A stretch of DNA of 64,000 nt. It comes from Polaromonas sp. (GTDB lineage: Bacteria; Pseudomonadota; Gammaproteobacteria; Burkholderiales; Burkholderiaceae_C). The stretch is from NCBI GenBank assembly GCA_044357185.1, contig JBIKPY010000006.1, forward strand, positions 4,086 through 68,085, written 5' to 3'. The notes under the pieces are model-generated. The model made no database searches. It was not told the DNA's origin and saw only the letters and a program-made list of their open reading frames with translations. A program made the translations under genes and the position numbers. This document shows, in pieces, positions 20,069 through 23,933 of this stretch. The first letter of the stretch is position 1. Every line of letters starts with the position of its first letter.

Positions 20069-20090
20069 ACTCCGCCTGAACTCAGCCTGG

Positions 20091-20474
20091 CTAGGCTGTA
20101 TCAGCACGCCACTCGGCACGCGTCATGCTGTAGTGCAGGCCCACGCTGTCGCAGTCGGGGTACACCGCGGTTTTGGCGCTGCGCACATCCACAGCGCGCA
20201 CCCGCCCGTCCAGCGCAAAGCAGATGTCGATGACTTCCTGCATCAGCGTTTCCTGCAAATTGAAGTGGCGCGAGCCCATCAAGGCAGAGACCTGCGCACG
20301 CAAGGCGTCATAGTCCACCGTTTCGGCGATGGTGTCATGCCGGGTGCGGTAGTCCGCATCAAGGGCTAAGCGCAGGTCCAGGCGAAAGGGTTGAGGGCCT
20401 GTTTTTTCAAAAGCGTGAATGCCGATAGACACCGGCAATTGCAGTGCGGCCAGTTCAATCCATTTGTCCATCAC
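20091..20474 (-). CDS. folB: FolB/FolX-family protein (dihydroneopterin aldolase/epimerase)
   Basis: IGIHAFEK, TVDY, FNLQETL, KTAVYPD; the Glu/Tyr/Glu/Lys catalytic positions of the T-fold are present. Confidence 0.82.
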   Translation of the reverse strand: MMDKWIELAALQLPVSIGIHAFEKTGPQPFRLDLRLALDADYRTRHDTIAETVDYDALRAQVSALMGSRHFNLQETLMQEVIDICFALDGRVRAVDVRSAKTAVYPDCDSVGLHYSMTRAEWRADTA

Positions 20475-21256
20475 AAGTCCTTGTTCTCAAAAGCCACGTC
20501 GCGCTGGCGCGGCACCAGGTGCTGGCCGCCGTCCACCAGCAACGTCTGGCCGGTGACGGCCAGGGCGTCGTCAAGCATCAGTACCGCCATGGCAATGTCT
20601 TGCGGCGTGCTGGACTGGCCGAGTGCGGCGATTTTTTGCGAGCGCTCAAACTCGGCCGGCGTCATGTCGCCGCTGAGCAGGGTCACGCCGGGGCTGATGG
20701 CGTTGACGCGCAAATAAGGCGCGCAGCATTGCGCCAGATAGCGGATGCTGGCGCCTGAACCCAGCTTGGCTAGTGTGTACGACAGGTAGTCGATGTTGAG
20801 GTTTTCCAGCTTCTGGTCGAGCAGCGTCACCACATGGCCGGACCGCGTGCCTGCTGCTTGGCTGTGTTGCGCAAGGTAGTGCCGGTGCAGCGCCATGGTC
20901 AGCTCGACCGGCGCGATGAAGTTGGTTTGAAGGTGCTGCTCAAAGCGCGCCGGCTCAAAACTGTGGGCGTTGTCGTACTCAAACATGGAAGCGTTGTTGA
21001 CGAGCAGGTGCAACTCGCCCGTCAGGCGCAGCACCGCGTCTACCAAGCCCGTGCGCTGGGCCGTGTCGGCCAGATCGGCCTGAATGATGAAGGCCGCCGC
21101 GGCGCCAGCGGCCAGGCAGTCCTCGCGTGTGCGCGCGGCTGCTTTGTCGCTGCCTTTGTAGTGAATCACCACCGTGTCACCGCGGCCGGCCAGCGCCAGG
21201 CAGATCTCACGCCCCAGGCGCTGGGCGCCGCCGGTCACCAGACTGACGCGGCTCAT
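20471..21256 (-). CDS. Pteridine-reductase-like SDR (FolM/PTR1/PruA type)
   Basis: TGGAQRLG (Arg in the Gly motif), VVIHY, LVNNASMF, YTLAK (YxxxK), RVNAISPG; overlaps the folB-like start. Confidence 0.82.
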   Translation of the reverse strand: MSRVSLVTGGAQRLGREICLALAGRGDTVVIHYKGSDKAAARTREDCLAAGAAAAFIIQADLADTAQRTGLVDAVLRLTGELHLLVNNASMFEYDNAHSFEPARFEQHLQTNFIAPVELTMALHRHYLAQHSQAAGTRSGHVVTLLDQKLENLNIDYLSYTLAKLGSGASIRYLAQCCAPYLRVNAISPGVTLLSGDMTPAEFERSQKIAALGQSSTPQDIAMAVLMLDDALAVTGQTLLVDGGQHLVPRQRDVAFENKDL

Positions 21257-21532
21257 GACACGCGCCCCTTGGCATTTGGATTCGTTAGCATCTGACTGTC
21301 CGTGTTCATGGTCGTGTTCGTTCGGGTGTGGCTGAGCCAGCCCCAATTACAACACCTGGCGAATCTGCATGGTGTCCGGTGTCGGCCCGGCTGGCTTGGA
21401 CATTGCTTGTCTTCAAAAGCAAGCACTTAAAGGCTTTGCTAAAGTAAGAAAAACATCACATGATTGCGTAGTTTTTTGTGGTGAAATAGAACTTTAAGTT
21501 GATTTTCGTTTAACTCAGTGTCAAAAGTACTT

Positions 21533-22045
21533 ATGGAAAACAGATTCGTAGCATGGTGGCTGGCTGTTGTTTTCACTGCTGGTTTTCCGTCCTGGGCAGC
21601 AGCCGCAGACCCGGCCGCTGTTTTGTTGACGGTGACGGGCAATATCCAGCCGGCCAAAAATACGGCCGGCAACAAAGTCACCTTCAACTTTAAAGAGCTC
21701 AGCGCAATGCCCGTCACCAGCATCCGCGCCACCACCAACTATTCGGGCAACGCCGAATACACCGGCCCGTTGATGAAAGACGTGCTCGCCAAGGCGGGCA
21801 TGCCGGCCACGGCCAAGGAGGTCATTTTGGTCGGGCTTGACGGTTACCAGATCCGAGTACCTGTCAGCGACTTCGTGAAGTGGGAGGTGGTGTTGGCCTA
21901 CACCCAGAACGGCAAACGCCTGGAGATTGAAACCAAGGGCCCCTTGCTCGTCATGTACCCGAACGACAAATACCCTAAAGAGTTGCGCAACCATGCCACC
22001 AACATCAAGCAGGTCTGGGCGCTGGTGAGCGTCAAGGTTCAGTAG
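21533..22045 (+). CDS. Periplasmic SUOX/YedY-fold protein, PruR-like putative pterin receptor (GTG 21518 also possible)
   Basis: Sec signal ending AAA; LLTVTG, YTGPLMKDVL, GLDGY, KGPLLVMYPND, VWAL; no Cys and no Tat motif. Confidence 0.8.
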   Translation: MENRFVAWWLAVVFTAGFPSWAAAADPAAVLLTVTGNIQPAKNTAGNKVTFNFKELSAMPVTSIRATTNYSGNAEYTGPLMKDVLAKAGMPATAKEVILVGLDGYQIRVPVSDFVKWEVVLAYTQNGKRLEIETKGPLLVMYPNDKYPKELRNHATNIKQVWALVSVKVQ

Positions 22046-22055
22046 GTCGCCATAG

Positions 22056-23933
22056 ATGCCAAACATACCGGACAAAATCGAGCAGAAAAAATCGGGGTTT
22101 CTGCTCAAGCAGTCACGCCGTTCGATACGGTTCAAACGCTGGCTCACCGTCAGTGCGGCGAGCTCCATTCTGGTTTTGTTTGGCCTGATTGCCTACCAGT
22201 TCGCAAGCACCTGGAAGGACTACAACGAACATCTGGGGGCCAGCAGCGCGACTGAAAGCTGGCTGAACCGCAAGCTCATCAGCTACAAAAGCATTGACAG
22301 TTACGACATGCTGCTGGCCTTGCGGCGTCTGGAGGCTGCCACCCTGCGCCATGCTGTTGGCAACATGAGCCAGAAGGACCTGTCGGACCAGCGCAAACAA
22401 GTCGCTTCCATGTTTGTGCACTTTGCCCCCGGCAGCATCTTCTACAAAGATTTTTTGGTCGACTATCCATCATTCGATCCTGCCTACCAGAGCACCCTCA
22501 CTTTTTTGAATACGGCGCAAAAGTTCGAAGCCGGGTTACAGACCATCAACGTGGTTCTGGAGAGTGCCGACACTGCGCTGGGCGACTGGATGATGTTCAC
22601 GCAAGACACGATCCGCGTGGAAATCGAATTGCGCGACGGAATGGAGAGCACCATCATTTCTTTCAGGCCGCTGGCCGAGCGCACCTTCTGGATCATCAGC
22701 ATTTTGCTGAGCCTGTTTGCGGCCGCCTCGCTGGCCGCCATTTACGCCGGTTGGGGCCTGATCAAGGGCGAGCAAAGACGCTTTTCGCGCTTTGAGCTCC
22801 TGGTGTCTTCGGTCGGGCACGACCTGCTGAGCCCGCTGCAGGCTATTCAGGGTGCGGGTAGCCTGCTGGCCACCGAGCTGAGCCCGGAAAAGCGCAAGCG
22901 CTTTGCCGGCATCATCCGGCTTTCCTCGCAAACATTGGCGCGGCTGGTCGGTGACATTTTGCAGATTTCGCAAGACAAGTCGCTGGACATCCGACCCCGT
23001 GCTGTCCCTCTCGAAGACTTTTTCAGCCAGATCGCCGCCGCTTTTGAAAGCAAGGCGGAGGCCAGAGGCCTGGTCTTCAGGCGAAATTTTCTGTTGCAAG
23101 GCGCCGAGGTGAAAGTAGACCCCGAACGCCTGTCGCAGTGCGTTGGCAACTTGCTTGAAAATGCGCTGCGCTACACCGAGCTGGGCTCAGTCACCCTGTA
23201 TTGCCGGCTGGACCTGCCCGGCGACGAGTTCAGCGCCCCGCAGCTGGTGGTTGAAGTCAGCGACACCGGTATCGGCATACCGATCGAAGACCAAAGCCGG
23301 GTGTTCGAGCCTTTCGAGCAAGTCAAGGGCGCCAAGAAGCAGGGCATGGGGCTGGGCCTGTCTATCGTGCGCAGTATCGTGACGGCCATGCATGGCGAGA
23401 TACGCTTGGAGTCAGTGCATCAGCGCGGCAGCAAGTTCACCATCACGCTGCCGGTTGTGCTGGTGCAAAGCACCATTGCCGAAGCCGCGGCCGATGCGGC
23501 ACCTGTGCTGCATCCACACTGCCAACCGGTACCGGCCAAACCGGGCGGCGCTGCTATTTTGGTGGTCGATGACGATGAACTGATTCGCATCTCTGTGGTC
23601 GAGATCCTGCGGGGCGCAGGTTACAACACTGACGAAGCGCCCTCCGGCGAAGAAGCGCTGACCAAGGTGCTGGCCGGCACTTACCAGGCGGTGGTGAGCG
23701 ACATTCAAATGGGCGGCATGGACGGCTTTGAGCTGGCCCAAAGCATCCGCCAGCAAAAGCCGGCCCGGCCTTACCTGATTGCCATGACGGCGCACACCCG
23801 CAACCTGGGCAGCGGTCCCAAGGCCGCGATGTTTGATGGGTTTTTGGGCAAGCCGTTTTCTGCTGAAAGCTTGCTTGAGCAGCTGGACAAAGCCCGCGGC
23901 CGCGCCGGCGATAGCGTGGCGCTCAGCGTTTAA
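22056..23933 (+). CDS. Membrane-bound hybrid sensor histidine kinase (periplasmic sensor, HisKA, HATPase, REC)
   Basis: Two TM segments; H-box VGHDLLSPL, N-box NLLENALRYT, G1 DTGIGI, G2 GMGLGL; receiver VVDDD...SDIQM...KPF. Confidence 0.93.
   Translation: MPNIPDKIEQKKSGFLLKQSRRSIRFKRWLTVSAASSILVLFGLIAYQFASTWKDYNEHLGASSATESWLNRKLISYKSIDSYDMLLALRRLEAATLRHAVGNMSQKDLSDQRKQVASMFVHFAPGSIFYKDFLVDYPSFDPAYQSTLTFLNTAQKFEAGLQTINVVLESADTALGDWMMFTQDTIRVEIELRDGMESTIISFRPLAERTFWIISILLSLFAAASLAAIYAGWGLIKGEQRRFSRFELLVSSVGHDLLSPLQAIQGAGSLLATELSPEKRKRFAGIIRLSSQTLARLVGDILQISQDKSLDIRPRAVPLEDFFSQIAAAFESKAEARGLVFRRNFLLQGAEVKVDPERLSQCVGNLLENALRYTELGSVTLYCRLDLPGDEFSAPQLVVEVSDTGIGIPIEDQSRVFEPFEQVKGAKKQGMGLGLSIVRSIVTAMHGEIRLESVHQRGSKFTITLPVVLVQSTIAEAAADAAPVLHPHCQPVPAKPGGAAILVVDDDELIRISVVEILRGAGYNTDEAPSGEEALTKVLAGTYQAVVSDIQMGGMDGFELAQSIRQQKPARPYLIAMTAHTRNLGSGPKAAMFDGFLGKPFSAESLLEQLDKARGRAGDSVALSV

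Follow-up and report, generated by a model that had tools for sequence, protein, structure and literature searches.

A candidate make-and-sense pterin cassette around a PruR-like receptor and a hybrid histidine kinase in Polaromonas

What does a periplasmic receptor of the pterin-binding type control when the gene behind it encodes a histidine kinase? The question is raised by a locus in a 64,000-nucleotide stretch of a Polaromonas sp. genome (contig JBIKPY010000006.1 of assembly GCA_044357185.1; the window hereafter), where an earlier note had described a PruR-like receptor gene wired to a hybrid histidine kinase instead of an enzyme of cyclic di-GMP (c-di-GMP) metabolism. In Agrobacterium tumefaciens, PruR and its partner DcpA (Atu3496–Atu3495; PDB 7kos, 7kou) make contact in the periplasm, a contact stimulated by the tetrahydromonapterin that PruA makes (Feirer 2015, PMC4488946; PMC11194511). 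The kinase wiring proposed for the window stands, with intact kinase motifs in a gene that is co-operonic with the receptor, but it is not new, having already been published as the PruR-DTB class by Greenwich et al. (PNAS 2024, PMC11194511), in which the partner of PruR is a TorS/BaeS-like kinase and not an enzyme of c-di-GMP output. What is new is a deep-branching receptor that lacks the PW motif of PruR and, going beyond the earlier note, a sensor domain that is not of the DcpA type, a divergently transcribed pteridine reductase and a FolB protein that belong to one cassette with the receptor and kinase, and a kinase family with kin on conjugative elements. Our reading of the whole, to which we give a probability of roughly 0.65, is that the four genes form a cassette that makes and senses a pterin signal.

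The receptor belongs to the PruR family by sequence and by fold. Its open reading frame (ORF) starts at the ATG at 21533, with an in-frame GTG at 21518 as the alternative, and the product opens with a Sec-type signal over about residues 1–25 (MENR, a hydrophobic stretch and AAA/AD). The motifs quoted in the earlier note are all found, namely LLTVTG (31–36), YTGPLMKDVL (76–85), GLDGY (101–105), KGPLLVMYPND (135–145) and W162-A-L, and the 170 residues include neither a Cys nor a twin-arginine (Tat) motif. Compared with all PDB sequences by phmmer, the receptor has four PruR structures as its top matches (E 2.9e-14 to 6e-11), those from K. pneumoniae (7rkb, 2.9e-14), A. tumefaciens (7kos), V. vulnificus (7kom) and V. 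cholerae (7kp2), and the next match is a sulfite dehydrogenase at 8e-5. An AlphaFold2 (AF2) model built on an 11-sequence alignment has a mean predicted local distance difference test score (pLDDT) of 80.7, with a disordered signal peptide (residues 1–24 below 50). The seven best Foldseek matches of this model in the PDB are all PruR structures, at target-normalised TM-scores of 0.83–0.87 and root mean square deviations of 1.8–2.4 Å, followed by catalytic SUOX enzymes and YedY at 0.24–0.40. The truncated SUOX-like fold of ~140 aa by which PruR is recognised is present, and structure prediction bears out the PruR-like identity that the earlier note had given the protein. In PruR, Y104 and W160 sandwich the pterin ring and N102 forms a hydrogen bond with it (PMC11194511); the equivalents of the two stacking residues, Y105 and W162, never vary in the clade alignments.

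Within the family the receptor stands apart. Its identity to A. tumefaciens PruR is 27–28%, and in a maximum-likelihood tree of 42 sequences a split with 98/97 support separates its clade, made up of Polaromonas and Rhodoferax metagenome-assembled genomes (MAGs), Rhodoferax antarcticus and metagenomic relatives, from the other 34 PruRs. With a SUOX outgroup the window clade branches first, on a root left unsure by the long outgroup branch. By sequence the clade appears to be a deep and so far undescribed branch. The same tree places the GGDEF-linked PruRs, those of A. tumefaciens and K. pneumoniae among them, in a single clade with good support that arises from within the kinase-linked ones. 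Pairing with a kinase may have come first, as far as a root resting on that long branch can tell. Word-indexed homologue searches reached close relatives only, most of them more than 80% identical and, in the case of the receptor, as low as 40%, and are for that reason unable to test homology to DcpA.

The receptor stop codon (TAG, 22043–22045) lies 10 nt upstream of the kinase ATG at 22056, as the earlier note had it, and this gap suggests translational coupling. The kinase has the domains claimed for it, a HisKA domain (residues 249–306), a HATPase_c domain (355–467) and a C-terminal receiver (REC, 501–610), behind two transmembrane helices at about residues 28–50 and 209–236; the periplasmic domain between them comes to ~158 aa by hydropathy, shorter than the ~170 aa first given. 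All motifs of a working enzyme are found (GHDLLSP, NLLENA, DTGIGI, GMGLGLS, DDD and VSDIQM), with the catalytic residue H255, the N, G1 and G2 boxes and, in the receiver, D505–507, D549, T578 and K599. Pfam finds no GGDEF or EAL domain in the protein, and its best partial match in NCBIfam is TorS (4.4e-56). The sensor domain has few relatives: 1.84 billion representative proteins, searched exhaustively by phmmer, yielded only 29 clusters, whose full-length members are hybrid kinases of ~560–640 aa and several of whose other members are shorter fragments. They share motifs of their own (SYDML..L.RLE, RRQV, SF.PA and W.LF..D...E...RD). An AF2 model of kinase residues 25–240 is all-helical (pLDDT 88.2), which suggests a fold of the helical-bundle class, compatible with the four-helix bundle proposed for DcpA.

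Divergent from this pair run two genes of pterin metabolism. The second FolB paralog of the genome, whose other FolB sits on contig C41, scores above the NCBIfam folB_dom cut-off and has dihydroneopterin aldolase 3v9o as its best PDB match (5e-12); its FolX model score, 34.6 bits against a cut-off of 152, is poor, so either an epimerase or an aldolase is in question, and we regard it as a candidate dihydroneopterin aldolase or epimerase that could feed a pterin side branch. Its neighbour is a short-chain dehydrogenase/reductase (SDR) of the pteridine reductase type. The mechanical ORF of the SDR begins at TTG 21346 (291 aa), and we set the start at the later ATG because homologues begin MSRVSLVTGG, which widens the intergenic region between the two operons. 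Its NCBIfam scores (PRK09134, 8e-74; pteridine reductase PRK09135, 3e-45) both lie below the cut-offs, and its best PDB matches include FolM (5tgd, 3e-32), followed by trypanosomatid PTR2 and PTR1. TGGAQRLG at residues 8–15 fits TGX3RXG, the Arg of which a review describes as specific to pteridine reductases, and YTLAK at 160–164 fits the YX3K motif defined in that review (PMC13259868). Together the two proteins are the enzyme pair expected of a FolX/FolM-like branch that would make a reduced unconjugated pterin. The intergenic region, presumed to hold both promoters, shows no match to a sigma-70 consensus and is 88% identical among four close relatives, which are too close to one another for operators to be defined.

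The pterin genes travel with the receptor well beyond the closest relatives. FolB and SDR genes flank it in close MAGs (the SDR alone at L003, where the contig ends), adjoin it in R. antarcticus, whose receptor is 43% identical, and flank it again in a metagenomic member (L084) whose kinase sensor domain is 30% identical to that of the window; at L088 and L091 an SDR gene adjoins the receptor without FolB. Beside canonical PruR loci no FolB or SDR gene was found within the flanks of the loci retrieved, and pterin-synthesis gene linkage of PruR pairs is not mentioned in PMC11194511 or PMC13259868. In R. antarcticus the SDR (L004:4394-4904) is split into two overlapping ORFs, by a frameshift or a sequencing error, and a Pyr_redox_2 gene lies between SDR and receptor.

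The four genes come as a single cassette, which most congeners lack. The source genome is a 2.75-Mb MAG, 92% complete; its nearest relatives with a name are MAGs from lake water that bear the label Polaromonas or Rhodoferax. Among 41 genus genomes the kinase is found only in the source genome (G000) and G401, with FolB and SDR at a contig end in G402, and in two congeners (G432, G420) the stops of glcF and eamA lie 49–54 nt apart, an empty site. Gain or loss has therefore affected all four genes at once, in support of a common function. In a further congener (G410, L045) the site is filled by an insert of 723 nt with two small ORFs that resemble a toxin–antitoxin pair, which marks the glcF–eamA spacer as a variable spot. 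The GC content of the cassette is 59.1%, against 61.9% for the window. All four genes are under purifying selection among the carriers, with ratios of non-synonymous to synonymous substitution rates (dN/dS) of 0.06–0.26: 0.06 for FolB, 0.21–0.26 for the receptor and 0.16–0.23 for the kinase overall, the periplasmic part of which is its most constrained portion (0.07–0.17). All 8 related loci from genome contigs keep the order of PruR-like gene and then histidine kinase, as do 6 of the 8 distant kinase-family members, over identities that fall from 90% to 30%, so the pairing is not due to chance; the earlier note had asked whether homologues keep a link to membrane sensors, and for the membrane kinase they do.

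Table 1. Positions of the cassette, its genes and the parts of the kinase in the window
Feature	Position	Strand	Details and basis
Four-gene accessory cassette FolB2-SDR / PruR-like-HK	20069..23929	.	3.9 kb, glcF stop to eamA stop
FolB-domain protein, second FolB paralog	20091..20474	-	127 aa; Pfam FolB 9.4e-22
SDR pteridine reductase, FolM/PruA/PTR1 type	20471..21256	-	261 aa from ATG 21256
Divergent intergenic region, presumed promoters of both operons	21257..21532	.	~276 bp, AT-rich near receptor start
PruR-like periplasmic receptor	21533..22045	+	170 aa; Pfam, PDB sequence matches, alignment, AF2/Foldseek
Hybrid histidine kinase (HK)	22056..23933	+	625 aa; Pfam, transmembrane scan, motifs
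First transmembrane helix (TM1) of the kinase	22137-22205		hydropathy
Periplasmic helical domain of the kinase	22206-22679		hydropathy
Second transmembrane helix (TM2) of the kinase	22680-22763		hydropathy
HisKA	22800-22973		H255; Pfam
HATPase	23118-23456		Pfam
REC	23556-23885		D549; Pfam

How the cassette would work can be laid out in steps, of which the ligand, the receptor–kinase contact, the direction of regulation and the partners of the relay are those that we infer. The FolB paralog and the FolM/PruA-type SDR would most likely make a reduced unconjugated pterin that reaches the periplasm. There Y105 and W162 of the receptor would probably hold the pterin ring between them, D103 supplying the hydrogen bond, and the pterin-bound receptor would dock on the ~158-aa helical periplasmic domain of the kinase. 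Docking would change autophosphorylation at H255 and transfer to D549 and, as no regulator is encoded at the locus, the output must leave it.

Where it would go is suggested by a single gene pair elsewhere in the genome. The contig of the window carries no other receiver or histidine phosphotransfer (Hpt) domain, in agreement with the earlier note, which had seen neither an Hpt nor a cognate response regulator in the window. The genome encodes 14 receiver domains and two hybrid kinases, the cassette kinase and another in a frame of 1,233 aa where a contig ends. Its only detectable Hpt is a stand-alone 130-aa protein on contig C82 (L009:782-1815), encoded by a gene that has a 4-nt overlap with the gene for a 214-aa regulator, in which an HTH_17 domain is N-terminal and a receiver C-terminal. 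That domain order, DNA-binding first and receiver last, is unusual. Among the 41 genus genomes, strong orthologues of the Hpt occur only in G000, G401 and G402, the three that carry cassette genes, and orthologues are present in three related MAGs as well. This pair is the best output candidate, and a relay from the cassette kinase through it is a possible lead, one that we think more likely to be wrong than right.

More distant members of the kinase family point to a different setting. We looked up by contig eight such members (among L081–L091) with sensor domains 30–45% identical to that of the window, six of which have a PF00174 PruR-like gene directly upstream of the kinase. Directly downstream, in 7 of 7 contigs that are long enough, lies a convergent gene for a protein of ~272–353 aa, and conjugation genes come next in 5 of 5 contigs that reach further, either SLT-TrbC-VirB3-VirB4(-TrbL) or a TraI_2 relaxase with a TraG-type coupling protein and a primase, often with DUF1173 nearby. 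The convergent proteins are all orthologues of one another, built of an N-terminal helix-turn-helix (HTH)-like region, a middle domain and, at the C terminus, a receiver (DWRLPD.DG); in R. antarcticus, too, a full-length protein of this family is encoded convergently to the kinase (E 5e-78). The kinase family is therefore usually at home in conjugative elements, where it heads the transfer genes, and the window copy is a regulator-less chromosomal derivative still under selection. No match to the kinase N-terminus came up in a tblastn search of 72,556 PLSDB plasmids, which places the conjugative relatives outside the sequenced plasmids. Among these loci, L085:5283-6000 and L090:344-893 have no intact PruR-like gene upstream of the kinase (stops in all frames, or ORFs of 78–79 aa only), L081:4499-4975 encodes a PruR-like protein with a divergent C terminus that lacks the conserved Trp, where decay or a frameshift is possible, and at L091:2288-3450 a Fic and VbhA toxin–antitoxin pair lies a few kilobases from a module of PruR-like, kinase and type IV secretion system (T4SS) genes. 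One speculative idea, which we consider rather improbable, is that the clade with a non-DcpA kinase and a dedicated HTH-receiver regulator is a device, placed ahead of the T4SS operon, by which conjugative elements gate DNA transfer in response to a self-made pterin (from the SDR with or without FolB) that serves as a mating or density signal; the window copy would then be a derivative that keeps the making and sensing half, has shed regulator and transfer genes, and has been rewired to the Hpt/HTH_17-receiver pair of the host.

Several observations weigh against the make-and-sense reading, and most concern the two contacts that it predicts, between receptor and pterin and between receptor and kinase. 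In the receptor, D103 takes the place of PruR N102 (LDGY for LNDY) and N69-Y70 that of P69-W70 (TNY for TPW), which agrees with the divergence of the TPW and ALNDY motifs that the earlier note had pointed out; P69-W70 replaces the SUOX Cys in PruR (PMC11194511) and is 'conserved in most PruR homologs', and the position is variable across the window clade (I-D, R-F, G-Y, P-H, D-Y). The periplasmic domain of the kinase has no WX7E motif (W69 is followed by Y77, and there is no W-x7-E/D), whereas the canonical partner domains share W-x3-Q-x3-E, which is the published WX7E, together with an LRFDILYSR-like motif. Compared by hhalign, the window sensor family reaches a probability of only 0.3, 2.1 and 4.1% against the GGDEF-linked, the kinase-linked and the combined canonical domains, respectively, where a reversed-sequence control comes to 0.4% and the two canonical sets, GGDEF-linked and kinase-linked, find each other at 98.8% (E 8e-17). 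The test tolerates loss of the motif, because two other Burkholderiales partners without the Glu still reach 95.4% against the canonical set. By every sequence test run, the sensor domain thus lies outside the DcpA type and, with both motif and profile similarity missing, the docking mode of A. tumefaciens cannot be carried over by homology. Foldseek found no significant PDB match for the sensor domain either (best E 0.1), its non-significant resemblances being to the helical sensor domains of NarQ, Tsr and Tar. On the output side, the source genome has no orthologue of the HTH-receiver regulator, where similarity is to generic receivers only. The Hpt of R. antarcticus is unrelated to that on C82 (29% identity, beside a methyl-accepting chemotaxis protein gene), which leaves the Hpt pairing without independent support; the three genomes that share Hpt and cassette are mutually closest, so their co-occurrence possibly reflects one event of shared ancestry; and partners could be missing from an assembly that is 92% complete.

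These points feed rival explanations of the locus to different degrees. The receptor could have a PruR-like fold and bind another flat heteroaromatic or redox-active metabolite, made or modified by the SDR and FolB, as the changed PW and N102 positions, the branching of the clade outside all other sampled PruRs, the sensor domain unrelated by sequence to DcpA-type domains and the SDR scores under the pteridine-reductase cut-offs would all allow. We think this unlikely, since both ring-stacking residues are invariant, the SDR has the Arg described as specific to pteridine reductases, FolB acts on dihydroneopterin, and N-to-D at position 102 is a natural variant in recognised PruR groups (Groups C and D of the sequence similarity network, PMC13259868). 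That receptor and kinase are merely co-transcribed, the one a pterin carrier or scavenger and the other sensing something else directly, would suit the weak resemblance of the sensor domain to ligand-binding four-helix bundles and the two distant kinases (L085, L090) without an intact PruR-like gene upstream, but the retention of the pair over such a range of identities, the 10-nt spacing and the precedent of PruR–DcpA contact (PMC11194511) make it highly improbable. The cassette might also be a functionless remnant of a conjugative module, its kinase left without output after loss of the regulator and T4SS genes. The convergent regulator next to the distant kinases and in R. antarcticus, the transfer or relaxase genes beyond it, and the lack in the source genome of any orthologue of the regulator, VirB4, TraI_2 or DUF1173 are what such a remnant would leave; the four genes are nevertheless intact and constrained, the sensor domain included, all kinase and receiver motifs are kept, and at least four related MAGs keep the regulator-less arrangement, so that we hold decay to be very unlikely. 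A catalytic SUOX/YedY (MsrP) molybdoenzyme, for which the Pfam Oxidored_molyb match (1.8e-13) and the record name of the R. antarcticus homologue ('molybdopterin-dependent oxidoreductase') might speak, is effectively refuted: the protein has no Cys and no RR motif of a Tat signal, its mature domain of ~145 aa is truncated relative to the >260 aa of the enzymes, and PruR structures match it far better than the enzymes do; the earlier note had likewise held that it cannot be a normal molybdoenzyme.

How do the partners of other PruRs compare? Our own sample agrees with the published survey. A search of 401 genomes of the phylum with a PruR profile (E ≤ 1e-8) matched 68 of them, some of the matches lying in longer frames that probably encode SUOX-type proteins of other kinds. 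Of the 29 best loci, five have a partner with GGDEF and 18 a partner with an H-box motif by pattern search; the partner at L024 is a kinase by separate evidence, and five partners fall in neither set. The partner at L030 (G155) is a kinase with a periplasmic domain that resembles neither the DcpA type nor that of the window, and those at L036 and L041 (G103, G355) are two-transmembrane proteins of ~342 aa with neither an H-box nor a GGDEF motif.

In the published survey, PruR-DTB accounts for 23% (29% in the Discussion) of more than 5,500 PruR-linked partners, often kinases that also carry PAS domains, receiver domains or both (PMC11194511); a 2026 review repeats the class (PMC13259868), of which a Ruegeria pomeroyi kinase is an example. 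The partner has a DcpA-type periplasmic domain with an invariant WX7E, and a response regulator gene is often proximal. The window locus resembles this class in its Sec-exported Cys-less PruR-fold protein directly upstream of a two-transmembrane sensor, and in a sensor with a periplasmic domain of ~150 aa, a HisKA-HATPase-REC cytoplasmic part and TorS as best partial match. It differs in a sensor that lacks WX7E and shows 0.3–4% hhalign probability to DcpA-type domains, in a receptor without PW that falls outside the 34 other sampled PruRs, in having no nearby response regulator, and in its adjacent pterin-synthesis genes. Because the sensor domain is not of DcpA type, the locus is PruR-DTB-like in its working but short of one defining feature of the class.

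With PruR–DcpA of A. tumefaciens the locus shares the receptor fold, the stacking Tyr and Trp, the two-gene operon with a two-transmembrane partner and, plausibly, dependence on a PruA-type reductase; its output is a phosphorelay rather than GGDEF/EAL, its receptor is far diverged with Asp for N102 and NY for PW, and its reductase gene is adjacent. The pruA gene of A. tumefaciens carries a distant locus tag, Atu1130. The pairing of a FolB-fold protein with a TGX3RXG SDR pteridine reductase recalls PruA and the tetrahydromonapterin branch that FolX and FolM make up in E. coli and P. aeruginosa (Pribat et al. 2010, cited in PMC13259868), but here the enzyme pair is wired to a sensor. TorT–TorS follows the same logic, a soluble periplasmic ligand-binding protein that regulates a two-transmembrane hybrid kinase with a helical sensor domain, whereas TorT has the unrelated fold of periplasmic binding proteins and TorS has its own Hpt and a linked TorR.

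PruR pterin signalling has been studied at the bench only with DcpA, and the kinase-linked class is known from genome surveys only: we found no bench study of PruR-DTB in the literature searched, where the term is used only in PMC11194511 and PMC13259868. The locus described here is a compact test system, as four genes seem both to make and to sense the signal, and a cultured relative, R. antarcticus ANT.BR, still has the cognate regulator. PruR-type receptors pair with at least one sensor family that a search keyed to the periplasmic domain of DcpA would probably miss, so the spread of pterin sensing may have been underestimated. The relatives that lie upstream of type IV secretion genes raise the further, testable idea that pterins control horizontal gene transfer.

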